A DNA stretch of 63,982 nt from an uncultured virus (IMG/VR IMGVR_UViG_2061766007_000892). Taxonomy: Duplodnaviria; Heunggongvirae; Uroviricota; Caudoviricetes. The position numbers and the translations under genes are program-made. The notes below the pieces were generated by a model. It made no database searches. It saw only the letters and a list, made by a program, of their open reading frames with translations, and was not told where the DNA came from. Where the stretch lies: IMG/VR virus record IMGVR_UViG_2061766007_000892. The stretch is one strand, 5' to 3'. Within the stretch, counting starts at the first letter, position 1. Each line of letters opens with the position of its first letter. Below are positions 19,524 to 39,378 of the stretch, in pieces.

Positions 19524-21476
19524 ATGATGGAAAGCTTTTCACGTTCAACAACTGTTAATAGTGATATTAATACTAAAAATGATAATTCATGGAAAACTAT
19601 GGGCGATATTATATCAAGTACTATAAATAGTATTCCTGATGATAAATATGATGCACCAATTACTGCGGTNNNNNNNNNNNNNNNNNNNNNNNNNNNNNNN
19701 NNNNNNNNNNNNNNNNNNNNNNNNNNNNNNNNNNNNNNNNNNNNNNNNNNNNNNNNNNNNNNNNACTTATAAATTTCTTATAAATGATGAATCTTTCACA
19801 ATAGGCTATTTAAAATATAATCCGACGCAACTAAAATTACAATTTAAAGCATATCGTGCAAGCGGTCAAGGGACTCTAAAAGTTTATTGTAAAAGTCAAA
19901 CAGTCAACATTACTTATTATATAGGAGATATTCCTATTAGTTTTGACTCTCCTGCCAATGAAGAACAATTTAAACAATATACTGATAAAATTAATATACA
20001 GCTTTCAAAAAAATCAAATGATATTAATAATTATACTTTACAGATTATAAATGCAGAAACTTCAGAAGAGATATATTCAGAAGGGATAAGTTCAGACGAT
20101 TTTAATGATAATATATATAATAAGTNNNNNNNNNNTAAAAATATTTTTAAATTCACGATATTCAATAAGTTCCATTAATTATTATCCTCCATTATTAGAT
20201 CCTTTCCTTTTGGATACTCATCTGAAACATATCTCCAAATAAAACCATAAGATGATTTTCCTTCTTGCCTACATACTCTAGCAATACATCCATGAGTTTT
20301 ATTTAATGAACGCCCCGCTTCACAAACTGAAGGAAATGTTTGTATATATTTACCATTTAAATCATACTAATTTACTTCCTTACTACATCTTTTTAACGTG
20401 GCTTTGGCAACTGCTTGCCGTCTTTCTTCCTCTGCTTTCTATAATTTTTCTATTATTAAATTAACAGAAATATCATCAGTTTGAAATTTCCAAATATAAT
20501 TTTTAGAAGTATGATGTTTCTAACAAGCTTCTGAAATAGCACTTCTAGAAGTATTCACTGCTCGGGCGGCCGCACCTTCTGAAAAATAAATATTTAATAA
20601 ATTTCCATTTAAATCATACTGCTCAACCGTTTTACAATCTGGCTATAAAATATTTTTTTCTTCTTGTGTTAAATATCCTAATCCAGCAGAGTGTAAAATA
20701 TCAGTAATAGTAATTTTATTTACACTAAACAATTCACATAACTCTTGTATTTTTAAGCCACTATTAAAAAGTGTTATAACTTCAGTTGGGTTTGTCTTAG
20801 GAGTTCCTTGGCCTCCCGGAGTTTGATTATATCCTTTTAGGCNNNNNNNNNNNNNNNNNNNNNNNNNNNNNNNNNNNNNTCAATAATAGAAAATTTAAAA
20901 TTTTCTACTCCATATTTACGTATTGCTCTATATAGTGGATAGTTATAGCTTACTAGTAAGGGATAAAAAGCTAATCTTTTATGATCTTTCCATCTAGTTT
21001 CAATGTGAATTGACTAACCTATATAATTTTTATGATTAACTAAATTTTCAATTCTATAAATACCTATCATATTAACCACCCGCTCGTTTATTATAACCAT
21101 ATTCTTGAGTTTTAAAGNNNNNNNNNNNNNNNNNNNNNNNNNNNNNNNATTCACCTAATTTATCTTTTTCGCAGTAAATTATTGATTCAATTGTCCAATT
21201 CCAGAAGCCAGTTTTTAAAATTTCATGATGAACTGCTTGGTCTGAAATTGTAGATAATCCAATCGAACTTTTAAAATGGTCTGAAATTCTTTTTTTAACA
21301 TTNNNNNNNNNNATTATTCTGCTGTTAATACAACTTCTAATGTTAGTCTATATATAATGCCAAAAGATTCATCTGAAAATCCAGATGCTGAAATTAACAT
21401 AGGGGTAGGATCTGGTTCTACAGTGGTTAGAGGAGTTTTAATTTTAGAATATACTACAAATGATAATAATCCTTAA
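19524..21476 (+). CDS. Putative tail/baseplate-associated protein (gapped; interrupted by a misplaced contig at 20136-21302)
   Basis: AAGGAG RBS then ATG at 19524. Open frames at 19524-19669 and 19765-20125. A + strand C-terminal piece (...YSAVNTTSNVSLYIMPKDSSENPDAEINIGVGSGSTVVRGVLILEYTTNDNNP*) ends TAA at 21474-21476. Confidence 0.4.
20175..21070 (-). CDS. GIY-YIG homing endonuclease with two NUMOD1-like repeats; five in-frame TAG codons (missed by the ORF track)
   Basis: Manual translation: MIGIYRIENLVNHKNYIG(TAG)SIHIETRWKDH...YPLYRAIRKYGVENFKF...GYNQTPGG...VEQYDLNGNLLNIYFSEGAAARAV...VN(TAG)YDLNGKYIQTFPSVCEAGRSL...YGFIWRY. No in-frame TAA/TGA until 20175-20177, which overlaps the next ATG. 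Confidence 0.88.
21072..21302 (-). CDS. Allelic C-terminal fragment of the 24227-25246 GIY-YIG protein
   Basis: NVKKRISDHFKSSIGLSTISDQAVHHEILKTGFWNWTIESIIYCEKDKLGE...FKTQEYGYNKRAGG* matches NVKKRIADHFKSSIGIKTIADQAVHREIWKTGFWNWTIEIIIYCEKEQLNE...FKSQEFGYNKNVGGGG*. Confidence 0.85.
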   Translation of the reverse strand, partial: NVKKRISDHFKSSIGLSTISDQAVHHEILKTGFWNWTIESIIYCEKDKLGEXXXXXXXXXXXFKTQEYGYNKRAGG

Positions 21477-23940: not shown

Positions 23941-24227
23941 AATAAATCCTCCACTACCGTTTTAATTAAATCATATGCTTTTTCAGTATCTACTTGAATA
24001 ATGGAGAATACTTTATTATTTTCTCTTTCAATAAGAGGAATATGCACAGTGACATGGCGGTTTAAAACAAATTTTGTAATATGAGAAAATCCGTCTATGT
24101 CTACTTCCTCGCTTTCGCTATCTATAAACAATGCATTTGTAAGAGCGTATAAAACATATAATTTTTCTTCTTCTTTATATAAAATAACTATATATTTTGA
24201 ATTACCTTCATACTTAATAATTTCCAT
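23937..24227 (-). CDS. Hypothetical protein
   Basis: TAATG overlap with the upstream gene. A probable allelic start (MELIEYREFKNIF) is at 20136-20175. Confidence 0.6.
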   Translation of the reverse strand: MEIIKYEGNSKYIVILYKEEEKLYVLYALTNALFIDSESEEVDIDGFSHITKFVLNRHVTVHIPLIERENNKVFSIIQVDTEKAYDLIKTVVEDLL

Positions 24228-25246
24228 TATCCACCGCCACCTACATTTTTATTATATCCAAATTCTTGGCTTTTAAAGAAATCTATATAATATTTTTCTA
24301 ATTCATTTAATTGTTCTTTTTCACAATAGATAATTATTTCAATTGTCCAATTCCAAAAACCAGTTTTCCATATTTCACGGTGTACTGCTTGGTCTGCGAT
24401 TGTTTTTATACCAATTGAACTTTTAAAATGATCGGCAATTCGTTTCTTAACATTGGTACTTTTACCAATATAGCATTTTCCAGTATCAATATTTGTGATT
24501 TTATAAATGCCGGGTTTATCTTCTATTCCGACCCGTTTAAAAGTTCCATCTATATAAGGTTTCACATATTCAGCCCACACAAGTTTATTTATAATATCAG
24601 GATGCTGAACTTTTTGTGAAACAGTAGTAATTAGAAAACTTATATCTTCTTTATATTCATCAGGAACTTGTATTGTATAAAATAAGCGTTCCTGTTGCTC
24701 CATTTCATATTGTCTTAAAGGAAGTAAAAGCCCTTCAAAACGTTCTTGTTGTGCGCGAGTCTCTGCTAGAATATTTTCTTGGCTTTCGCGCGCGGCATCA
24801 ATCACTGACTGGGTTTCTTGACAAAATTTATGTTCTCGTTCTAATTCATCACGCTCAAATTGAGCATATTTAGATTTTAAATTTTCTTCTTTCTCACGCC
24901 ACAATCGTTCAAAATCTGTATCCATTTCTGACTGGCGCGTAAGTTTTTGATTTTCAAAATATAAGTCTAAATCTGTCGTTTTCTTATTTAATTCTCGTTT
25001 ATACTTATTTTGAATTTCAATTAATTTATCATTATATTCACTAACTAAATTAGTTTGTGTTTTAATATCTTTTGTTAATTCATCTTTTTGAAAACGAAGT
25101 TTTTCAACTCTTCCTTCTGCATCAGAGATTTCTTTTTTATAAACTTCTAATTGCTTATTATCAATTGAAATTTTTTGTCCTAGTTTTACACCTAGTATAA
25201 TTATTATAATTGTAAGTATTCCTATTATTCCATATAACATCTACAT
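24227..25246 (-). CDS. Membrane-anchored coiled-coil protein with C-terminal GIY-YIG nuclease domain
   Basis: N-terminal hydrophobic helix (LYGIIGILTIIIIILGV), long coiled coil, then PGIYKITN...CYIGKS...RIADH...LEKYYI...GYN. RBS spacing favours the ATG at 25246, which is followed by TAG. Confidence 0.8.
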
Positions 25247-25311: not shown

Positions 25312-25590
25312 TTAATTGGTTAATATTACATAAGCGTGGTAATATCCATCATTTTGCTGCTGATATGGATTAGGAATAGGAGCAAACTTTTTTAAAACAC
25401 TATTGGATGAATTAAGCCAAACGCAATATTCTTTTTGATATTTATTTAACAAATAATTTGTAATGGTTTTACTTTCATTAGACATAAAATCTTTATACCA
25501 AATTTCAAAAACTGGTTCTTTTCTCTTGCCCTTGAAATATAAAAAGGTATATTGAGTATAATTTATAGGAAATTGAATAATTTCACACAT
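25312..25590 (-). CDS. Hypothetical protein, paralog of 25645-25917
   Basis: MCEIIQFPINY...FLYF...PVFEIW...PIPNPY...YHAYVI. Confidence 0.65.
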   Translation of the reverse strand: MCEIIQFPINYTQYTFLYFKGKRKEPVFEIWYKDFMSNESKTITNYLLNKYQKEYCVWLNSSNSVLKKFAPIPNPYQQQNDGYYHAYVILTN

Positions 25591-25644
25591 AAGATTGCTT
25601 TCTTTCTTAACATATTTTAAAAACCAAGTATTTATATTATTTAT

Positions 25645-25917
25645 TTAAGCTAATGTAATAATAATATAAGCATGAAATTTATTATCTTTTTGTCTAATAT
25701 AAGGACATGGCACAGGTTGAAACTGTTTTTTTACTGTAGAAATTAATCCATAATTAATTTTAGCCTGTTTAATTTTATTTAAAATTAAACAAATGTTAAA
25801 TAGTTCTTCTTTAGTATTACCCCAAACTTCAAAAATAGGCCGTTTTTTATCATTGGCTATAAAATAAAGAAAACGATAATTAACATTTTCAATGGGTAAT
25901 TGAATAATTTCGCACAT
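25645..25917 (-). CDS. Hypothetical protein, paralog of 25312-25590
   Basis: MCEIIQLPIEN...FLYF...PIFEVW...PVPCPY...FHAYII; AAAGGA RBS. Confidence 0.65.
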   Translation of the reverse strand: MCEIIQLPIENVNYRFLYFIANDKKRPIFEVWGNTKEELFNICLILNKIKQAKINYGLISTVKKQFQPVPCPYIRQKDNKFHAYIIITLA

Positions 25918-25942
25918 AAAATAAATTCCTTTCTTTTTCTTT

Positions 25943-25971
25943 ATTATATCATAAATTAAAATATTTGTCAA
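25943..25971 (-). promoter_or_regulatory. sigmaA-type promoter
   Basis: TTGACA-17 bp-TATAAT with TG extension. Confidence 0.85.
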
Positions 25972-26000
25972 AAAGAAAAGAGCGGGCTTAGCCCGCTCTT
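25970..26000 (-). terminator. Intrinsic terminator
   Basis: AAGAGCGGGC-TAA-GCCCGCTCTT hairpin followed by a T-rich run on the minus strand. Confidence 0.8.
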
Positions 26001-26154
26001 ACTTTTTAATATCCATTCCTAACTTAATAGAGTTAATAAACCAATAAATCATTATAAATAATGCCGCACTTTTATTATTAACTAATAACGTGAAATTAGT
26101 CGCGGCCACAAGAAATAAAAGAATGGATAAAATTAAACTAATTTTCTTTTTCAT
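25999..26154 (-). CDS. Small membrane protein (51 aa)
   Basis: MKKKISLILSILLFLVAATNFTLLVNNKSAALFIMIYWFINSIKLGMDIKK*; overlaps the nrdG end. Confidence 0.5.
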   Translation of the reverse strand: MKKKISLILSILLFLVAATNFTLLVNNKSAALFIMIYWFINSIKLGMDIKK

Positions 26155-26626
26155 GCAAATAAATCACCCTTTGATTTGAAGAACCACGTAATGGTAATGT
26201 AATATCTCGTTTATCTTGTTCATAACGACCATCAATAATACAATCAGTATGTTTAAAAATCATATTAATAATTTCGTCTCCTTCTTCAAATAGTTCTTCA
26301 ATAGTATATCCAGTCCAAATATATATTTTCATTTGTGGATAAATTTTGCGGCAAATGCTAATTAAATCATATACCGCCTTGCGATTTTCAGGACAAAGTG
26401 GTTCGCCGCCAAGAATGGAAAGTCTACGTTCAACTCCATTTTTTCTTAGTTTCGTAAGTATTTCACGAATGGTTTCTGGAGTAAACTCTTCTCCAAAATT
26501 AAAGTCTTGTGCTTCTGGATTCTGACAACCGGGGCAATGGAAGTGACATCCAGAAAAATAGACCGACAGGGAGATACCAGGCGCTGCCGCGGTATCGTCC
26601 CAATAGATTCCAGCAATTTTACTCAT
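26138..26626 (-). CDS. nrdG: Anaerobic ribonucleotide reductase activase (radical SAM)
   Basis: GCHFHCPGCQNP, LSILGGEPL, IWTGY, DGRY, RGSSNQR. Ends in TAG, or at TAA 26096-26098 if read through. Confidence 0.93.
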   Translation of the reverse strand: MSKIAGIYWDDTAAAPGISLSVYFSGCHFHCPGCQNPEAQDFNFGEEFTPETIREILTKLRKNGVERRLSILGGEPLCPENRKAVYDLISICRKIYPQMKIYIWTGYTIEELFEEGDEIINMIFKHTDCIIDGRYEQDKRDITLPLRGSSNQRVIYLHEKEN

Positions 26627-26628
26627 AG

Positions 26629-27224
26629 TTAATGAACGTGCTTTACACGTGCTTCTGTTTCTTTTTGTTTGCCCCAATTAAACGCGGTTTTATAATCGCC
26701 GGTAAGATAACCCGTTACGCGACGTAAATGCTGAATATTATGACTGCCGCACTGTGGGCAGGTATCATTAATTTCATCAGCGTAACCACAATCCATACAT
26801 GTATCAAGAGGTACATTTACAGCAAAATATGGAATGTCGTGGTCCATCGCATAATTAACAATAGTTTCAAGTGCTTCAAGATTGTTTTTTACACCAGAAG
26901 GTAATTCTACATAAGTAATACATCCGGCACTGGAATACCCTGTAAGTTCGCTCTCAATATCAATTTTATCAAACACAGAAATATCATGCCATACAGGAAC
27001 ATGGATACTGTTGGTAAAATATTCGTGGTCACTTACTTTTTCAATTTCGCCATACTTCTTTTGGAACTTCTTCATAGCGGTGTAGCATAGATTCTCTGCG
27101 GGAGTATAATACACGCCGAAGTTTAACTTATACTCTTTCTTAAATTCAGCACATCTATCTTTAAATAACTGTTCAATTTGCTTTGCTAATTTCATTCCTT
27201 TTTCGGTAGTATGGTCGCAGCCAA
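26629..27224 (-). CDS. nrdD: NrdD C-terminal fragment (allele 1)
   Basis: YYTPAENLC, YFTNS, CMDCG...CPQCG, and the glycyl-radical motif RRVTGYL. Confidence 0.9.
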
Positions 27225-27235
27225 NNNNNNNNNNT

Positions 27236-27379
27236 TACCTCACTAAAAGCATCAGATGGAGTATAAATAGCACGATAATCTATACAATCTTCTGCATAAT
27301 CAACATCTTTTTCATCATACATAAAATTCCATGGGCATTCGTGCTTTTCTATTTTCCATCTACATTCATTACAAGTCAT
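27236..27379 (-). CDS. Small Cys-containing hypothetical protein
   Basis: MTCNECRWKIEKHECPWNF...DCIDY, immediately after the stop of the second nrdD allele. Confidence 0.45.
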
Positions 27380-27380
27380 T

Positions 27381-29034
27381 TTAATGAATATGCTTAACGC
27401 GGTCTTCAGTTTCTTTTTGCTTGCCCCAATTAAATGCATCTTTATAAGAACCGGTTAAGTATCCAGTGACACGACGTAAATGAGAGATATTATGTCCTCC
27501 ACATTGTGGGCAGGTATCATTCATTTCATCTTGATAGCCGCAATCGTTACAATTATCTAGTGGTACATTTAATGCAAAGTAAGGAATATCTTTATCCATA
27601 GCATAATTGACAATAGTTTCAAGGGCGTCAATATTATTTTTTACGCCAGACGGAACCTCAACATATGTAATACAGCCAGCACTTGAATATCCGGTTAATT
27701 GTGCTTCTATATCAATCTTATCAAAAATTGAAATTTCATGCCATACTGGAACATGAATACTATTTGTAAAATATTCACGATCAGATACATTAGGAATTTC
27801 GCCGTATTTTGCTTTAAATTTTTTCATTGCAGTATAGCATAAGTTTTCCGCGGGAGTATAATATACTCCGAAATTTAATTTATATTCTTTTTTAAATTCT
27901 GCACATCTATCTTTAAATAGCTGTTCAATACGCTTTGCTAATTCCATTCCTTTTTCAGTGGTATGATCACAGCCAATTAAAATTTGTAGAGTTTCAGCTA
28001 AACCTAATTGTCCAATAACAATTGTGCCATGTTTTAAAGCTGAACGAATACCTTCTTCTGGATGATAGCCAAGCATTGTCCCATTTTCATACATAAATTT
28101 TGCTGATGAAGGAGATTGAGAACAAATCCAATCAAAACGTTCAAGTAACATATCTTTGGCTTCATGAATTTTTTGATCTAAGCTGCGTAAAAAGTAATTA
28201 ATTAAATCTTCTTCAATGTCCCATCCTTGTGGATTATTAGAATTTAATTTTGCTTCCATAGCAATAGTTGGCATAATAATTGTAACAGGGCAAATATTGC
28301 CGCGGCCATCCTTTGTTTGAGGATTAGTACCTTCTTCAGCATTAATATCAGCACCGTTCGCAGTCCTACATCCCATTGTGGAGAAGTAAGTTTTAGGGTC
28401 ATTTACATCATAACCAGCATTACCAGACCAATCAACATTAGCGTAATTTGGATAAATACGTTTTGCAGTTGATTCTAATGCTAACCTAAATAAATCATAA
28501 TTTGGATCGCCAGGCTCACGATTCACGCCCTTCATACATTGAAAAATACCACAAGGGAAAATAGGAGTTTTATGAAATTTTCCTACTCCTTTAATTGAAC
28601 CTTCAAGTAATGCTTTTGTTACCATGCGACCTTCGGGCAATGTACAAGTTCCATAGTTAATAGATGTGAAAGGTAGCTGATTTCCGCTTCTAGATTGAAG
28701 TGTATTGAGATTATGATACATACCCTCAACTGCCTATTGTAATTCACGTTCGGTCATATCCATAGCGTATTTATATGCTTTTGTACATAATTTTGCGGTT
28801 TTGACTAATGATACTGTTTCAGAATTAACAGTTGGATTAATATAATCATCAATAGGTTGACGTGCAGTATCAATTCCATATAAAAAATGATCGCTGCCAC
28901 TATTATCAATGTATTCTAATCCATCTTTAAAATGTTTCCAGAAACTTTTTCTAACATAGGGCACCATAGTCCAATCTAAATGCGTAGCTGAAACACCACC
29001 AAATTGCATCAAAGATTGTAGCTGGAAAATAACT
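27381..29034 (-). CDS. nrdD: NrdD middle + C-terminal part (allele 2) with in-frame TAG at 28734-28736
   Basis: Continuous frame VIFQLQSLMQFGG...ERELQ(TAG)AVEGMYHNLNTLQSRSGNQLPFTS...MGCRT...RRVTGYL...KHIH*. Confidence 0.92.
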
Positions 29035-29044
29035 NNNNNNNNNN

Positions 29045-30671
29045 AGTGCTAATGTTCCATGCTTTAAAGCAGAACGAATACCTTCTTCTGGATGATAACC
29101 CAACATAGTCCCGTTTTCATACATAAACTTTGCTGATGCGGGGCTTTGGCCGCAAATCCACTCAAAGCGTTCTAGTAACATATCTTTGGCTTCGTGGATT
29201 TTTCTATCTAAAATTTTTAAGAAAATTTCTTCAATCGGGTCTTGACAACCATTCTCTACATCTTGTTTTGCTAACATAGCAAGTGTAGGCATAATAATTG
29301 TAACTGGACAAATATTACCACGACCATCCTTGGTTTGAGGATTAGTACCGGGCTCAGTATTTATATCTCCTAAATTTGCAGTTCTACAGCCCATTGTGGA
29401 AAAATAGGTGCGAGGATCATTTATATCATATCCTGCTGCATTACTCCAATCAACATTTGCATAATTGGGATAAATTCTTTTTGCAGTAGATTCTAGCGCC
29501 AATTTAAATAAATCATAATTAGGATCTCCTGGCTTACGATTTACACCTTTCATACATTGGAAAATACCGCAAGGGAAGATAGGAGTTTTATGTAACTTTC
29601 CTACGCCCTTAATAGAACCTTCAAGTAATGCTTTAATAACCATACGACCTTCTGGTAATATGCAGGTTCCATAGTTAATAGAAGTGAATGGAAGCTGGTT
29701 GCCACTACGGGATTGCAAAGTATTTAAATTATGATACATTCCTTCTACTGCTTGCTGGAGTTCGCGCTCTGTCATTTCCATCGCATATTTATAAGCTTTT
29801 GTTACTTTTGCAGTTTGCACTAAAGGAAGCACATTTTCGTCAACTGTTAAATTATGATAAGGTTCAATAGGCATTCTAGAAATATCTACATTTAAGAAAT
29901 AATGATTTTCATTACCTTCTTCAAACCATTTTAGTCCTTCTTTAAAATGTTTCCNNNNNNNNNNNNNNNNNNNNNNNGCACCATAGTCCAATCTAAATGA
30001 GTTGCGGAAACACCGCCAAACTGCATCAATGATTGAAGCTGAAAAATAACAGCAACAAGCTGGAAAGCAGTATTAATGGAATTAGCTGGCCGCACATCAG
30101 TTTGTCTAGTATTAAAACCCTCTGCTAATAACTTATCAAAAGGAATAGATAAGCAATTGTGCATACCAACCGCATAAGCACTTAAATCATGAATATAAAT
30201 TTCATTATTTAAATGATTATTTCGTGCCATATCAGACATACAGAAATCAAGTGCATATTGCTTCATCATTTCATCTGATGCTTCGCCCACGCGGCCACCA
30301 AATGAATGTTCATCTACATTAGCATTTTGATTTTGAACATTTTTTGCTTGTAATTTTTCGCTAATTGAACGAATAAATTCATCAGAACAAGCTCTCATAA
30401 CTCCTCGTTTATAGCGATATTTTATATAAGCTTTGGCAACTAATCTATCATAATCAGTTAAATAATCTTCAACTAATTCTTGAATTTGTTCTACAGTTAA
30501 TGGCTCATCAAACTATGAAGCGACTTCATATACTAAATCTGCGATTTCATAAGCATATTCTGGAGTCTCATTTGTAAAATTAACGTCATTATTTGCTTTA
30601 GTGATAGCATTTATTATACGTTGTTTATCAAATTCTACTATGTCTCCATTTCTTTTAATTATATTTATCAT
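29045..30671 (-). CDS. nrdD: NrdD ATP-cone/N-terminal and middle part with in-frame TAG at 30513-30515
   Basis: GGAGG RBS, then MINIIKRNGDIVEFDKQRIINAI...VAS(TAG)FDEPLTVEQIQELVEDYL...AKAYIKYR...YIHDL...ERELQQAVEG...MGCRT...KHGTLA. Confidence 0.9.
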
Positions 30672-30782
30672 AAAAAGCCTCCTATACTAATCCGCCAGTT
30701 TTATAATGAAAACCGCAATACGGACAAGTATTATTTTTTATTAAAGAATAATCTGTACAATGCGGACACTAGCTTTGATTGA
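30655..30782 (-). CDS. Allelic fragment of the small Zn-finger protein, with two in-frame TAGs
   Basis: NQS(TAG)CPHCTDYSLIKNNTCPYCGFHYKTGGLV(TAG)EAFYDKYN* versus the allele NQKHCPH...TCPYCGFHFSTGGIWRENEND*. Confidence 0.7.
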
Positions 30783-30792
30783 NNNNNNNNNN

Positions 30793-31260
30793 CTTCGCCA
30801 TTTCCGACATACAGAAGTCAAGAGCATACTGCTTCATCATTTCATCTGATGCTTCACCTACGCGGCCACCAAAAGAATGCTCGTCAACATTAGCATTTTG
30901 ATTTTGAACATTAGAAGCGGTTAGTTTCTCACTAATAGAACGGATGAATTCATCAGAGCAAGAACGCATTACGCCTCTCTTATAGCGATAACGAATATAT
31001 GCTTTTTCTACGAGGCGGTCAAAAGCCGCTAAATCATCTTCAACTAATTCTTGAATATTTTCAACAGTAAGATATTTTCCACTATCTGTAAAAGTTTGAT
31101 TAGCTACACGTTCAATACTATCTGCAATAATAGTAAAATATTCCGGCTCATCGCGTGTAGAGTCATTATAAACTTGAATCCAAGCTTTTCTAATGGCATT
31201 TATAATTTTAGATTTATCAAAATCAACTTCTGAGCCATTTCTCTTAATGACCTTAATCAT
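30793..31260 (-). CDS. nrdD: NrdD ATP-cone N-terminal fragment (other allele)
   Basis: MIKVIKRNGSEVDFDKSKIINAI...TVENIQELVE...KAYIRYR...NQNANVDEHSFGGR. Confidence 0.9.
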
Positions 31261-31473
31261 TTTCGTTTTCCCTCCAAATGCCGCCAGTGCTAAAATGAAA
31301 ACCACAATAAGGGCAAGTATCATTTGTAATTTCCCAATTATACTTTGTGCTCGTATGCGGGCAATGCTTTTGATTATCAATAATGGCGAGCTTTATTTTT
31401 TGTANNNNNNNNNNNNNNTTCTTAATTCTTTATTAAGCTGTTCACGAGTTTGAATAATATCATCAATCCTCAT
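31253..31473 (-). CDS. Small Zn-finger protein (CPH...CPYCG)
   Basis: MRIDDIIQTREQLNKEL...IIDNQKHCPH...TCPYCGFHF; overlaps both neighbours. Confidence 0.6.
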
Positions 31474-32517
31474 ATTCTCCACCTTCCTCCTTTCGCAACC
31501 ATCTCGTGAGACTGTGTAAATAAGTCTTTTGCTGATGGATAAAATTTTAATAATAATTCTCGTTCATCCATTGCTGGATTTTTCTTTTTAGTATTTATTC
31601 TATCATTTAGAATTATTGAATAGTTATCTTTTCTGGTTACATCCGCCCACCGTTCAATGCGAATAGATAAATTCGCCAATGGATTTTTATACCCTATAAA
31701 TGGTGGTTCATATAAAATTTTTATTGGTATATCAACGCTCCAAAGACAGTATAATAAATTCATTTTATNNNNNNNNNNNNNNNNNNNNNNNNNNNNNNNN
31801 NNNNNNACATTAGAATAAGGAGTAATATCGGCTTTTAAATAATTTTTATATTTATTAGTCATATAATATACTTCATCTAATGGTATATCTAAATCAAATA
31901 TAATTGTATTTGAACGAGTCATTTTAGGATAATTTCTTATTTCAAAAAACTCGGATAACTTTTTACAAATAATNNNNNNNNNNATGGTTTTCTATTACTA
32001 ATATCCTCTAATATGTCGCGCCAATTTGGATAGAAAAATTCGCGGTCATACATTATTAATCGTTTGTTTGACATGATAGGCGGAACTGGTAACTTCTCTT
32101 CGCNNNNNNNNNNNNNNNNNNNNNNNTATTATCTAATACATTAGAGATAACTTTTGCTTTTATACCGTCATCATATTTTCCTTTTAAATATTCTTTATAG
32201 ATTGCTGGCCGCGGAATAGTAAAGTCTATAATTGAGTTTTCAAATGGAATATATTTTCCATTTGTAAAAGCTGTGCCTCCATATTCTACGACAGGCGAGC
32301 GTAAGAACTGCTCTGGTATTTTTGGAACCGCATGTCCTTCACTGAAAAAGTAAATCTTTTCATATCCAGACAAATCTTCTTCATCCAAAGACAACAATCT
32401 ACAAAACCGATTTTCTTCGGTTTTGTAGTAAGTTGCCAGTTTCATTATCTCAAGATTAGGTATGATGAACTTGGAGGAAGAAAAATTTGATATATCATAA
32501 TCAACTAGTCCTATCAT
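31470..32517 (-). CDS. Hypothetical protein resembling the N-terminus of phage radical-SAM-associated proteins (one gapped gene)
   Basis: MIGLVDYD...PNLEIMKLATYYK...YEKIYFFS...YGGTAF. The frame continues across gaps (EEKLPVPPIMSNKRLIMYDREFFYPNWRDILEDI...) into ORF 31470-31922. Confidence 0.45.
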
Positions 32518-35500
32518 TCTTCTACCTCCGCGCGCTCATATTGGAAAGTTAAGTTTCCATATTCATCTACATTTGTTATCTTTGAAATAATCGGATAGAT
32601 TGATTGTTTCTTTTTCTTGGGGATGAAATCATTTCCGCGGCGAATACCTTGAACCATTAATTTTGTTCCGCGCGCAAACCAACTCTTTTCAATGACATGC
32701 TTTTTACCGTCATCTCCACGCTGACTTAATTGCTTATCATAAATCGCATACTGATTTTTATAAATTTTTACATTCACAACGCCAGTCGGGGTTAAGAGCG
32801 TAACTGTATTACGATTCTTATCTTTATCAATTACAGTTCCAATGATTTTGAATAACTTATATACCTTTATTTCTTGACCATTACTTCCAGGAAAACTATA
32901 CTCAATTTCAGGTTCTTCTGATAATTTGAAGAAATCATCAAAATCATTCTTGGCTTTTGCTAATTCATGCTCATGATAGTAGAATGAGATACTATCCATT
33001 TCCCACTTACTAATATTACCATCAGCATACTTATCAGCAATTTCATCGTATAAAGCCTTATTTAACTTTGCCAATGCTTCTTCTTTATTATCTTTTAAAT
33101 ACTGACGCATTGGCTCCATGGCTTTCTTATAAACATTATCCCAAGTTTTTTGTAAAACTCTTGTGCCGTCTTCAACTATATCTATATCAANNNNNNNNNN
33201 NNNNNNNNNNNNNNNNNNNCATAATAAATTCCATCTTTACAAGTCTTTAAAAACTTATTAAATGAGAATAACTTTGCATAGAATTGCATATCAGTTGGTA
33301 TCTGATTTTTCGCAATTAACATTGACATATTTTGAAGAGTCAATCTTTGCTTCTTATCTGCAATCATGTCAATATATTTTGCCATGATTTCTTCACGCGG
33401 AATATTCTCAATATTATCAAATGCGCCAGACTTAATTAAATTTATCATTTGAAGTTTATTCACCTTAATTTTCATTAAGAAATCCTTCAATGACTCATAT
33501 GGTCGCATAGCCATAATTTCATTAATCTTGTCTGTGGAGACGCGAGTGATGCCGCGTAACCCATAAAGAATAACATTATCTTTTGCGACAGGTGTAAATG
33601 TAAAAGAAGATTGGTTGATGTCAGGTGGAGATACTTTAATTCCATAATCGCCCATTTTACCAATAATTGAGGCGATGCGTCCATAGTCAACAACTTTGTT
33701 CTTTTTCTTTTTCTTATCTGCCGTTGCTTCAGTTGTTTCTTCATTTGCTTCTTCCCATTCTTCTTCGTCAGATTCTTCTTCATATTCTACACTGTTTTCA
33801 GTAAGAATTGCTTGAATCTCATCTTCATCTTCTTCATCAACATCTTCGANNNNNNNNNNNNNNNNNNATTCGCTGTGTTCCAATACACAATTGGATACCT
33901 ATATGCTAAATTCATTTCTTGAAGAGCAATAATGGAATAAGCATAAGTATGACTCGCATTAAAACCATATCCGCGGCTTAATGCAATTTGAATATCCCAG
34001 ACATAATGACAAAATCTTTTACTAAGATTCTTTTCATCTACTCGTTCATAAAATTCTTTGGTTAGTTGCTCATATTCTTTTGGGTTCTTCTTCGCAATAC
34101 TTTTACGAAGTCTATCAGCCCATTGTAAGTCCCAGCCGCCGCATTCGGGTAGCTGAACCAATTTCATAAATTGCTCCTGTGTAATTGACAAACCGTCCGA
34201 AACATCTAATTGCTCATGAAGCAATTCTCGTTCCTTATTTGAAAGACCATACTGAATCATTTCAGTTTCCCAATCATTAGGATGCTTACGAAAACGAGCA
34301 TATTTATCTAGTGGTGCTTCTGCACCTTTTTCTGATGCCATAAGACGAATAACCGAGTTTAAAGTTGCTAAGTCGTCAACATTTTTTGGATGAGTTAATG
34401 AAATTCCACGAATACCACTTGCCTTTTCCATCTGAAAAAGACTTACAATCTTATGTTCATCTACTAACTTCCACATATCTTCATCATCACGAAGAATGTT
34501 ATATACGCCCAATGCCTTTTCATATGTTTCGCGTAAAGTCGGATACTTTTCAATATATCCGTCTTTAATTAACATTTCAAGACATGTTTGGATTTTATCT
34601 GCGGCTTCAACTGATAGAAGGTCCATTTTAATTTCTGAAACATCTTCCAAATCATGAAGCTCAAACTGAGTAATAATTGTTCCATCAGGTGCGCGCATAA
34701 GTGCGCTAGATTCTGTGAAATCTTTATCTTTAAATACTACACCGCCAGCATGAATACCGTATCCACAAATTAGACCTTCAATTTTACTGGCAACTTCCCA
34801 TAGTTTATCATACTTATTTATTTCTTCTACAAATGTTGGATTAGGTTTAATACCGTTTTCTTCATCACCATAATACATTTGATGCAATGTATATGCTTGT
34901 CCACGTTCTTGTGTAACCAAAGAAGAAATATATTGCGCGTTATCTACATCAATTCCTAATCCACGACACGCTGTAAGAATTGCTGATTTAGACTTTTCTA
35001 GTTTGAATGTTGCTACATTTGATACTCTATTCTCACCATAATATTTTCTCAAATGCTCCAATACCTGCGCACGCTTAATACCAGAAATATCTACATCAAT
35101 ATCAAGAACAGACACACGCGCAGGATTAAGGAAACGCCAAGGATACATGGCTGTCTTTTCGCGCAAAGCATTAATTTGAATAATGTCTAACGCATATAGA
35201 AGTAAAAATCCGCCACCAGAACCACGCGCGGGCATAACTAATGTTCCAGCATTCCAACATTCATCAATAATCTTTTGAAGGTTAAGGAAATAGGCTGACC
35301 ATCTTGCCTTATTTACTTCGCTTGATTCCCATGTCATTTCAAGACATTCGTTTAATGCATTATATGCTCGTTCATTCTGTAAATCTCTATGTCTCTCAGT
35401 TCCATCTAATACGGCCCACGATAAAATATTATCAGCATTATATTGAGAATATACAAATTTTTCAAGGGCTGGCATTTGCTTAATGCCCCATAAAATTCTT

Positions 35501-36518: not shown

Positions 36519-38259
36519 CTTATTTTCATCTTTTACTAACTCATAATCATCAATAAATACTTGAATTGATGTGCGGCCGGCGAAAGTATTTAGATTTGCG
36601 CGCCCATAAACTGTAAGTTTATCCATTCTATTATTCATAACGGTGTCAACAAAATCCATATCCTTAAATCTTACATAATCAATACCATTACAAGAAATCT
36701 TCATACTATCCTTATTCGCGCCCATGGCCATAACATTTGAAAGTGTAATGTTTTTGATTACAAATTTAATTTCATCTATATGATTACCGAAAAACTCTGG
36801 GTGCGAAGCTAACACCATGAGCAGTTCAGTATTATTATCACCAGCATCAAGAATATAATCCACCGTATAACACTTTTTAAAATCATCATCATTAAGAACT
36901 TCGTTACTATAACTTAATAGTCGTTCATCTAATGTAGCATTAATTCCAAAGCCTGCCGCGNNNNNNNNNNNNNNNNNNNNNNAAGGAATTGCTTAAAGCT
37001 GGGCAGGCCAGCGAAATTTCCGCTGCTACGAATACTTCCATTGATTTCCCCTTTGTCATTACAACGACCAATCATAACTGGCTTATTATATTTATTTACA
37101 ATAGCCATTGCGACTAGTCCAGNNNNNNNNNNNNNNNNNNNNNNNNNNNNNNNNNNNNNNNNNNNNNNNNNNNNNNNNNGTTCAATTTCTACTAAAATAA
37201 TATTATTGCTTGCCAAATCATTCTTTTGAATTTTAAAATCAATTAAGTCAATGGCCTTTTCTTTTAACTTATCTTGGCGGGCCTTTGCGNNNNNNNNNNN
37301 NNNNNNNNNNNNNNNNNNNNNNNNNNNNNNNNNNNNNNNNNNNNNNNNNNNNNNNNNNNNNNNNNNNNNNNNNNNNNNNNTTTCATTGACCCAACACGAG
37401 TTAGGGCATTAATTAAGGGAGCGATATAGAAGGCAACGTCAATAGGAGTTAAGCCGCTCCATGGAAAAGTAGCTTTTTCCTTTAAGGAATATGATTGCGA
37501 TGCCAGTAAAGTCTGAAAGCCCTTATTTTGAATATTAGAAAGGCCCTCAAGCATAAGATAGTTAGTTTCAGTTGTTGTCCTATCCATAACATCAGCGATT
37601 TCTCCAAGTGCAACTAAATCCATATATTCCTGCGCTTGATGAATACCAAGAATTTCATCTAACACTTCACAGAATTTATATACTATACCCGCGCCGCAAA
37701 GAGACTTATTTTTATAATGTGGAGAAAGCTGATTATTTACTATTACTGTATTTGTAGCAGTAGAAATAACGGGATTGCCATCAGTATCATAAAGTTGTTC
37801 GTGGTGGTCTAGCACAAGGCAGTCAATATTTAAGTCTGCTAATCGTGCATGTTCTTCTACATCGTAACTCGCGGAATCTGGACAAATGACCAAATCAATA
37901 TCATTTAAAGTTTCTAACCAATCAATTTTATCATCAAGTCCGTGCTGCTTATGCTCGTGCAATGTAAAATTAAGATTAGCCTTTGGAAAAATATGCTTAA
38001 TATAAAGCCATAAGATTGATGATGAAGTAAAGCCATCACAATCTGAATCTACGATAAACATAATTTTACTATCCGCGCGCAAATGTCTTAATAGCATATC
38101 TGCGGCTAAATCAATATTTTCAAGTCCATATGGATCTAATTCGCATTTTGAAGTTGGATATAAAAAATTTTCAATATCTTTTACGCCACGGTCAATTAAA
38201 ATTTCTTGAAGGGCGTAGTCTGGATTAATTGTATAGTTCTTTCTTAATCTATATTGCAT
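36519..38259 (-). CDS. recJ: RecJ-like DHH ssDNA exonuclease (gapped)
   Basis: IVDSDCDGFTS, HGL, LDHH, LCGAGIVYK, LVALGEIADVM, IAPLINA, GSIRS, AAGF. Confidence 0.9.
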
Positions 38260-38275
38260 AAATATTACTCCTATC

Positions 38276-39378
38276 TTATTTNNNNNNNNNNNGTTCAAAA
38301 ACTTCTTTTCCCTTATCAAATGGAGAATCCTTTTCCTCCAATACATTATCATAATCCCATATGTAAGAAAAAACAGCCTGATTGCTATATTTACGACACA
38401 TAGATATTATTCGTTCTTTATACTTACGAGCCTTTTCAGTTCTCCAATCTGTATATTCTTTATCTAATGCTATGATAATTTCATTTGCACCTAAAATATC
38501 AGTTAATAAACTGATATGATATTTATTAAAAGTTGAACCACAACATGCAACACAATTGCTTAAATCACCATAATAACCATCATCTAGTAATACTGATTTT
38601 TCAGCTTCTGCTATAATTGCTTGTTGTCGTCTTTTAATACCATTTTGATGTTCATATATACCATACAAATTAAATTGTAATTGATGAGTATATAATATTT
38701 TTCCTATTTGTAGTGGACGATATTTACCATAAAGCTCTGCTTCTTCTTTATTAAAAGTTCGCCCACGAATACCTATTAATCTACCGTTTATATCAAAGTG
38801 AGGAATAACTACTTTATTTTGAGTTAGTGAAAATCCTATATGAAATTTATCCATAGCCTCTTTTGTAATACCATCTTGTAGCCAAGATGGATGATAATAA
38901 TGAGTAAAATATGATANNNNNNNNNNNNNNNNNATACTGGAATATTTGTTTTAAATTTATATCGTTCCGAATCTATTATTAAATCATTAGTGCGTTTTTG
39001 TGTAGAAACGATTATATGTTTTAAGCATTGTTTGACATAATCTTCTGCTTCTTCTAAGGTTACAGGATAATGATTGATCGCCATATATTTTTGATATAAT
39101 TTAAATATGGACATCGCTTCATTACATTCTGTATAACATCTAAAAATTTTATTATTTTGATACCAATACAGTTTCATAGATTCTGCTTCATTGATAGGGT
39201 TATGACAAATTGTAGGACACACAAGATATTGTTTTTCTTCATTAACCATTATCTGTGTTACTCCAAGACTTTCAAGAAAATTCTTTACATCATGAAGTGT
39301 AATTGAATCTATAATATCCTTTTTGGAAGCAGTAATGAAATCTAAATTAGTATCTTGATTTTTTAATGTTTGTATCAT
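38276..39378 (-). CDS. DNA primase (Zn-binding + TOPRIM)
   Basis: CPTICH...FRCYTEC; VIPHFDINGRLIGIRGR; KYRP; AEAEKSV; IIIALDKE. One gap splits the ORF track. Confidence 0.88.

Follow-up and report, generated by a model that had tools for sequence, protein, structure and literature searches.

The window analysed here, a stretch of 63,982 nucleotides (nt) from an uncultured virus (IMG/VR record IMGVR_UViG_2061766007_000892), contains several overlapping versions of nrdD, the gene for class III ribonucleotide reductase, one of which is crossed by an in-frame TAG codon at 28734-28736. We consider it very probable that this is a rumen-phage scaffold in which contigs of at least two, and probably three, related phages follow each other in series across nrdD, the backbone phage using the standard code and two contigs, hereafter b and d, coming from relatives in a lineage that reads TAG as glutamine (NCBI code 15). 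Related phages from one sample would thus have been merged across nrdD in a gap-ridden scaffold of a large, low-GC rumen phage. The backbone phage, predicted to follow the standard code, would be represented by 30793-31404, by 29045-29954 and by the sequence up to 27224, and the contigs 27235-29034 (b) and 29978-30782 (d) would derive from relatives of the lineage of code 15. There the TAG at 28734-28736 would be an ordinary sense codon within a full-length, functional reductase, decoded most likely by a phage-supplied transfer RNA (tRNA) with a CUA anticodon, which is putative for the source genome of contig b; that genome would be recoded throughout.

The window is a metagenomic scaffold with 65 runs of N (3,531 N in total) and a GC content of 33%. 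PHROG matches to a tape measure protein, DNA polymerase, DnaB, topoisomerase II and ligase identify it as part of a large tailed phage. The elements of the nrdD region are as follows (ORF, open reading frame):

26138..26620, minus strand: backbone nrdG (activase), ending in TAG at 26138-26140; Pfam Fer4_12 (PF13353) and Radical_SAM (PF04055) over 26141-26620
26629..27224, minus strand: upper end of contig a, last 197 codons of the backbone nrdD, stop TAA at 26629-26631; Pfam NRDD and Gly_radical
27225..27234: N gap between a and b, 10 N; the duplication boundary coincides with the gap
27235..27380, minus strand: remainder of contig b beyond nrdD, with the beginning of a small Cys-rich ORF (from translation)
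27381..29034, minus strand: contig b (27235-29034), nrdD from about residue 215 to the stop TAA at 27381-27383 (from Pfam)
29035..29044: N gap between b and c, 10 N
29045..29954, minus strand: contig c, middle of the backbone nrdD, with CAA 29752-29754 opposite the TAG (from codon alignment)
29955..29977: N gap between c and d, 23 N; 26 nt between codons against 24 in b, so that the frame is lost
29978..30782, minus strand: contig d, small zinc-ribbon ORF and N-terminus of nrdD (ATP-cone), residues 1-231
30783..30792: N gap between d and e, 10 N
30793..31404, minus strand: contig e, backbone small zinc-ribbon ORF and nrdD residues 1-156 (ATP-cone), ATG at 31258-31260

The small Cys-rich ORF of contig b has no counterpart between nrdD and nrdG in the backbone. 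Contig d also contains in-frame TAGs, one in nrdD (30513-30515), opposite which contig e has CAA, and two in the small ORF (30769-30771 and 30682-30684).

An in-frame TAG at a glutamine position of NrdD

An earlier note on this DNA, made from the sequence alone, had proposed that the TAG occupies the same codon as a Gln in the other nrdD copy, and the codon alignment bears this out. On the minus strand contig b reads CGT GAA TTA CAA TAG GCA GTT GAG in the 28757-28734 region and contig c reads CGC GAA CTC CAG CAA GCA GTA GAA in the 29775-29752 region, the TAG at 28734-28736 pairing with the CAA at 29752-29754. The flanking differences, said to be synonymous, are so in all eight flanking codon pairs, and the glycyl-radical motif does lie downstream of the TAG (RRVTGYL; Pfam Gly_radical, E = 2e-9). 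The frame beyond the TAG is open as claimed; its length, given as 446 codons, is in fact 450 sense codons up to the TAA at 27381-27383, and the smaller figure is that of the ORF counted from the ATG at 28721. When TAG is translated as Gln, contig b matches the Pfam entries NRDD (PF13597, E = 2e-122) and Gly_radical (PF01228, E = 2e-9), and its NrdD matches the solved structure 8p23 (E = 1.5e-90).

The ratio of non-synonymous to synonymous substitution rates (dN/dS) was computed by the Nei-Gojobori method on the codon alignment of the nrdD copies. It amounts to 0.36 upstream of the TAG (66 codons), to 0.10 downstream of it (234 codons) and to 0.04 over a further 197 C-terminal codons (26632-27222 vs. 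27384-27974), values that speak for purifying selection past the TAG; the comparison of the two sides suggested earlier reveals no rise downstream. As to the occurrence of the sequence elsewhere, contig b is found in sequencing runs of at least four studies, the shares of its words recovered being 0.92 and 0.90 for the sample from which the scaffold probably stems, and 0.87, 0.72 and 0.51 in other runs. An exact-flank search of Joint Genome Institute (JGI) metagenome contigs for the codon version of contig b gave no match.

Relatives were collected by scanning IMG/VR with the contig b protein; the 80 loci considered are the best 80 of 606 confirmed, on contigs of up to 434 kb (L-numbers denote loci or contigs of relatives, G-numbers whole records of relatives). 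The column of the TAG, column 100, is Gln in all 80. In-frame stops occur inside full-length nrdD matches in 11 of these loci, and all 23 of them are TAG, none being TAA or TGA. Seventeen of the 23 stand at a Gln of the query (P = 3e-20, given 20 Q in 550 residues), and a TAG is present in some locus at seven of the 13 columns with a Gln share of 90% or more. A degenerate motif scan of IMG/VR returned CAA (20 of 24) or CAG (4 of 24) at the codon itself. With TAG fixed in the motif, three metagenome contigs (L144-L146) were recovered, which are 72-84% identical to contig b at the nucleotide level, have TAG at the same codon and contain an otherwise open nrdD, in which TAG is the only in-frame stop and lies at the Gln columns 100, 113 and 371. 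A census over the longest non-overlapping frames of the window extended the comparison to other genes: for the 36 window frames with matches, the in-frame stops of the relatives comprise 473 TAG, 44 TGA and 30 TAA, the TGA and TAA cases being mostly alignment overruns, and 199 of the 473 TAGs stand opposite Q, for a Q background of 3.7%, as against 20 opposite S, 7 opposite Y and 11 opposite L. By alignment, the codon thus corresponds to glutamine, and the TAG in the genome of contig b is most likely a Gln codon in nrdD.

That the codon is decoded as a different residue seems very improbable to us, whether a long-arm suppressor tRNA inserts Ser, Tyr or Leu or the residue is pyrrolysine, and so does the related proposal that the gene yields two polypeptides with a restart at an ATG four codons downstream. 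It is true that a long variable arm, such as bacterial tRNAs for Ser, Leu and Tyr have, is also present in the sole CUA tRNA detected among the relatives; however, the preference for invariant Gln columns, and the preponderance of Q over S, Y and L in the census, are not what such residues would predict. The restart could use the ATG at 28721, but the split points would then differ between phages, being spread over eight Gln columns, which makes a fixed two-chain enzyme implausible.

Very improbable, too, is that the TAG represents a nonsense mutation or an assembly error, contig b containing a dead or mis-called nrdD. Such a change would require only a single transition from CAG, and both the solitary occurrence of the TAG in the 550 codons and the presence of CAA or CAG in all 24 matches of the degenerate scan are in keeping with it. 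Against it stand the low dN/dS values of 0.10 and 0.04 downstream, the recovery of contig b in several studies and the TAG at the same codon of three divergent contigs whose nrdD is otherwise open. Moreover, no TAA was seen among the in-frame stops of the relatives' nrdD genes, although CAA, from which one transition leads to TAA, outnumbers CAG as a Gln codon, which argues against random nonsense mutation.

Relatives with different genetic codes

The contigs of the backbone are 88-98% identical to the loci L013, L009, L015 and L027, the nrdD end in contig a and contig e reaching 93% and 95% nucleotide identity to L013, respectively. The best nucleotide matches are L002 and L001 for contig b (81%), L008 for contig d (85%) and L009 for contig c (82%), so that for b, c and d no relative comes closer than 81-85%. 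A phage collection gave only distant nrdD matches, to Thomasclavelia phages (73%).

Coding coverage of the relatives was counted by ORFs of at least 150 codons. Treating TAG as a sense codon raises it from 0.56-0.67 to 0.84-0.96 in L001-L006, L008, L011, L012, L014, L016, L020, L021 and L035, and from 0.25 to 0.93 in L075; treating TGA as sense changes little in those TAG-gaining loci. L009, L013, L015 and L027 already have a coverage of 0.87-0.92 and gain nothing with TAG as sense. L002, L001 and L008, the best matches of b and d, are TAG-rich. From these patterns it follows that contigs b and d resemble TAG-recoded phages and that the backbone resembles phages of the standard code.

A different behaviour is seen for L017 and L019, on contigs of 434 and 418 kb, where coverage rises from 0.85 to 0.98-1.00 with TGA, not TAG, as sense; L025 gains more weakly with TGA (0.65 to 0.79), and several loci have an in-frame TGA opposite W. 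The NrdD family may thus include TGA-recoded megaphages. In L039 and L072 the nrdD matches are split in two pieces, and in the Thomasclavelia phages TR-TP1 and TR-TP2 (H1 and H2) an HNH endonuclease is annotated inside the nrdD match; judged from these sequences, mobile elements appear to insert into nrdD in this family.

The nrdD copies come from different phages

The earlier note had treated the two copies as alleles and their comparison as an internal control, and this part does not stand. Contigs b and c are 75% identical over 300 codons, with a synonymous rate dS of 1.2; for the C-terminal pair (26632-27222 vs. contig b) the values are 79% and 2.3. Such identities and dS values exclude alleles, the copies moreover lying on separate contigs. 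For the N-terminal pair, d vs. e, the nucleotide identity is 71%. Apart from one pair of 154 nt, the nrdD region holds the only tandem self-similarities of the window, and there is a 10-N gap at each junction between overlapping nrdD versions.

Logan contigs of the runs X1, X3, X4 and X20 were placed on 25500-32500. One contig of X1 (3677 nt, without mismatch) runs from 25500 to 27224, continues with 38 letters and resumes at 29045-29950, thereby skipping contig b. Together with the partial codons on either side the fill makes 42 nt, in frame and equal in length to the 14 codons that contig b has there (hand count). Contig b itself has other neighbours: at 29034 it adjoins, in X1, X3 and X4, a sequence resembling that at 30052 but differing from contig d by about 10% (15 of 161 letters, 31 of 276), and at 27235 it adjoins, in X1 and X4, a sequence like that at 26627 (the start of nrdG), with two letters between. 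Since a joins c directly, b is skipped and b has other neighbours, the scaffold is chimeric. The overlap between d and b (29978-30050 vs. 28961-29033) is only 89% identical, which indicates more than one source genome for the TAG-bearing pieces. Judging from these identities the sources are probably three, namely the backbone (e, c and a), a second genome (b) and a third one (d). The nrdD copies are orthologues from different co-occurring rumen phages that were set in tandem by the scaffolder. The comparison of TAG with CAA is therefore valid evidence for Gln as a comparison between species, not as an internal control, and the equivalence of TAG with Gln proposed earlier holds for the source genome of contig b and cannot be carried over to the window as a whole.

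The least probable of the alternatives, a single genome with real tandem partial duplicates of nrdD and with TAG = Gln throughout, would account for the common scaffold and orientation of the pieces and for in-frame TAGs in four contigs of the window, but it is largely refuted by the Logan contig of the likely source sample that joins 27224 to 29045 without b, it does not explain the other neighbours of contig b in three studies or the 10-N gaps at all junctions, it needs three separate nested partial duplications with dS > 1, and it conflicts with backbone genes that have no credible in-frame TAG and an nrdG that ends in one.

Genetic code of the backbone phage

Any statement on the code of the backbone has to take into account that the sizes of all 65 N runs are estimates and not masks, so that neither length nor frame is preserved across them. 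Several gaps are filled in Logan contigs by other numbers of letters than the scaffold has N, and the reading frame after many gaps is shifted relative to intact relatives, for example at 33850-33867, 36961-36982 and 38917-38933. The DNA polymerase (33787) and other genes seem to end in TAG because the frame shifts past an N gap, where intact relatives read on. Gene calls that span N gaps in this window are unreliable, and most of the other apparent TAG stops of the backbone are discounted for the same reason.

The 89 frames retained (19,461 codons) contain 26 TAGs. Credible internal ones occur in contig b (one), in contig d (one, in nrdD) and in two homing-endonuclease contigs (five); the remainder precede a start codon, stand at the end of a gene or belong to short frames that are doubtful. 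Within these frames, no credible in-frame TAG was found in the long, homology-supported genes of the backbone. The backbone nrdG, located in a gap-free contig, ends with TAG at 26138, its counterparts in L009, L013, L015 and L027 ending with TAA one codon earlier, which suggests that TAG acts as a stop in the backbone. Per 1000 aligned codons, 11 recoded loci have 4.1-8.2 TAGs vs. 0.2-0.7 in the four relatives of the backbone, and the few TAGs of the latter lie upstream of starts. ORF statistics of the whole window under different codes, which are uninformative because N gaps shift the frames, give no clear coding gain with TAG as sense, as is expected if the backbone is standard-code. From these sequence features, the backbone phage probably uses the standard code.

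The five TAGs just mentioned (20367, 20439, 20520, 20643 and 21014) belong to a GIY-YIG (PF01541) and NUMOD1 (PF07453) homing endonuclease on the minus strand, spread over the contigs 20136-20842 and 20880-21117, which are bounded by N gaps including the 10-N gap 20126-20135. The search for relatives yielded a single weakly matching sequence, containing one TAG, in the TAG-rich record G001. Either these contigs, too, stem from a recoded phage and are foreign to the scaffold, or the gene is a mobile one that carries its TAGs within the standard-code backbone. An unlikely extension of the second possibility is that standard-code and TAG-recoded sister phages multiply side by side in one rumen community and pass modules to each other despite their different codes, the endonuclease at 20136-21117 being truly part of the backbone and translatable only with a suppressor tRNA from a co-infecting recoded relative. 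Close by lies the direct repeat of 154 nt (80% identical), formed by 21149-21302, a tiny contig, and 24301-24454, the C-terminal GIY-YIG-like part of a 337-residue ORF (24227-25240; PHROG homing endonuclease); the repeat represents a second copy of the endonuclease or else one more contig of an alternative haplotype.

A candidate decoder tRNA in a relative

Searches for tRNA genes found none in the window and none in 26 loci around the nrdD genes of relatives. The complete, TAG-rich record G002 has one tRNA with a CTA anticodon among 27 called (26 in a main array and one elsewhere). The standard-code records G004 and G005 have no such tRNA, and have tRNA-Gln with both the ctg and the ttg anticodon. 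A DNA search with the CUA tRNA of G002 gave no match in G006-G009, and a tRNA-like call in G007 (L149:9355-9426) was rejected as decoder, being without a CUA anticodon.

The CUA tRNA of G002 (L112:8570-8659), with its long variable arm, comprises 90 nt, as against 76 nt for the tRNA-Gln(ttg) of the same record. In its acceptor end A1 is unpaired with C72, G2-C71 and G3-C70 are paired and the discriminator is G, by which it resembles the tRNA-Gln of that record. Between tRNA-Tyr and the CUA tRNA of G002 there is a tRNA-like stretch of 127 nt (L112:8436-8562) with acceptor and T arms and a long insertion around a GUA anticodon-like loop, which may be an intron-containing or a degenerate tRNA.

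Weighing of the assignment

Several points weigh against a chimeric scaffold with a code 15 component as outlined above. The TAG at 28734-28736 is the only one in the 550 codons of contig b, and the recoded state of contig b's own genome therefore rests mainly on its relatives. Logan contigs of four runs cover the TAG site, and none of the 40 differences listed, of 117 in all, falls on 28734-28736; 40 of 117 differences do not establish that the TAG is kept letter by letter in X3, X4 and X20. The TAG of contig d at 30513 lies in a variable column (E 16, Q 14, K 12, S 10 and others), and those in its small ORF stand opposite H and R in contig e, so that, from the alignment, the three TAGs of this contig would say little about the amino acid inserted. 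The standard code of the backbone is suggested by one reliable TAG stop, that of nrdG, together with the absence of in-frame TAG, and the source genomes may number two or three, given the 89% identity between b and d in their overlap. Finally, no CUA tRNA was called in G001 and G003 (75-80% complete) or in G006 and G007 (complete), all of them TAG-rich. Its presence in one of five TAG-rich relatives is not out of line, since a suppressor tRNA detection rate of 40% in recoded phages is given by Borges et al. (bioRxiv 10.1101/2021.08.26.457843).

Significance and comparison with known systems

Recoding of TAG to Gln in gut phages is already established, and the nrdD case is a further example. 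It adds one lineage, that of large rumen phages with NrdD, which has standard-code and TAG-recoded members and possibly TGA-recoded ones. Its chief value lies in a caution: the present scaffold mixes contigs of two genetic codes, with N gaps that break frames, and treating the window as one genome misleads the inference of the code, the gene calls and the comparison of supposed alleles.

Short-read scaffolds can carry haplotype or strain duplication artefacts, in which alternative versions of a locus stand in series. The nrdD region resembles these in having versions of one locus in series across minimal gaps of 10 N, but differs in that the versions are about 75-80% identical and use different codes, far beyond strain-level variation.

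With the class III NrdD/NrdG systems of known structure (8p23 and T4 NrdD, 1h78) the present proteins share the ATP-cone, the NRDD barrel, the C-terminal four-Cys zinc site and the glycyl-radical domain, as well as an adjoining radical-SAM activase; for contig b, an nrdG-like sequence adjoins its low end in X1 and X4. At the TAG column 8p23 has Gln, whereas T4 NrdD has Asp; Gln in this position is thus invariant within the clade but not universal.

Gut phages of code 15 have been described among the crAss-like and Lak phages and in the Jade, Sapphire, Agate, Garnet, Amethyst and Topaz clades (10.1101/2021.08.26.457843; PMC9523058; PMC10607447). Gut phage clades from humans and animals, including cattle, mix the codes 11, 15 and 4, relatives of more than 80% average nucleotide identity can differ in code, and recoded TAG aligns best with Gln, according to the first of these (bioRxiv 10.1101/2021.08.26.457843). 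For crAss-like phages, proteomic data support Gln at TAG (Peters et al., Nat Commun 2022, PMC9523058), and a group of TAG-using gut phages of 136 kb is described by Babkin et al. (2023, PMC10607447). The window contains no terminase by which the present lineage could be placed in one of the named clades. The likeness of this lineage to them is manifold: conserved phage genes with TAG in frame where Gln is expected, a low GC content (33% here) and large genomes (130-190 kb for the relatives here), close relatives that differ in code, a suppressor tRNA detectable in some genomes only, and an animal gut or rumen as source. The difference concerns the kind of gene, as TAG enrichment is stressed for structural and lysis genes by Borges et al. 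(10.1101/2021.08.26.457843), whereas the TAG described above lies in a gene of nucleotide metabolism and TAG is rare in nrdD, with zero to four per gene.

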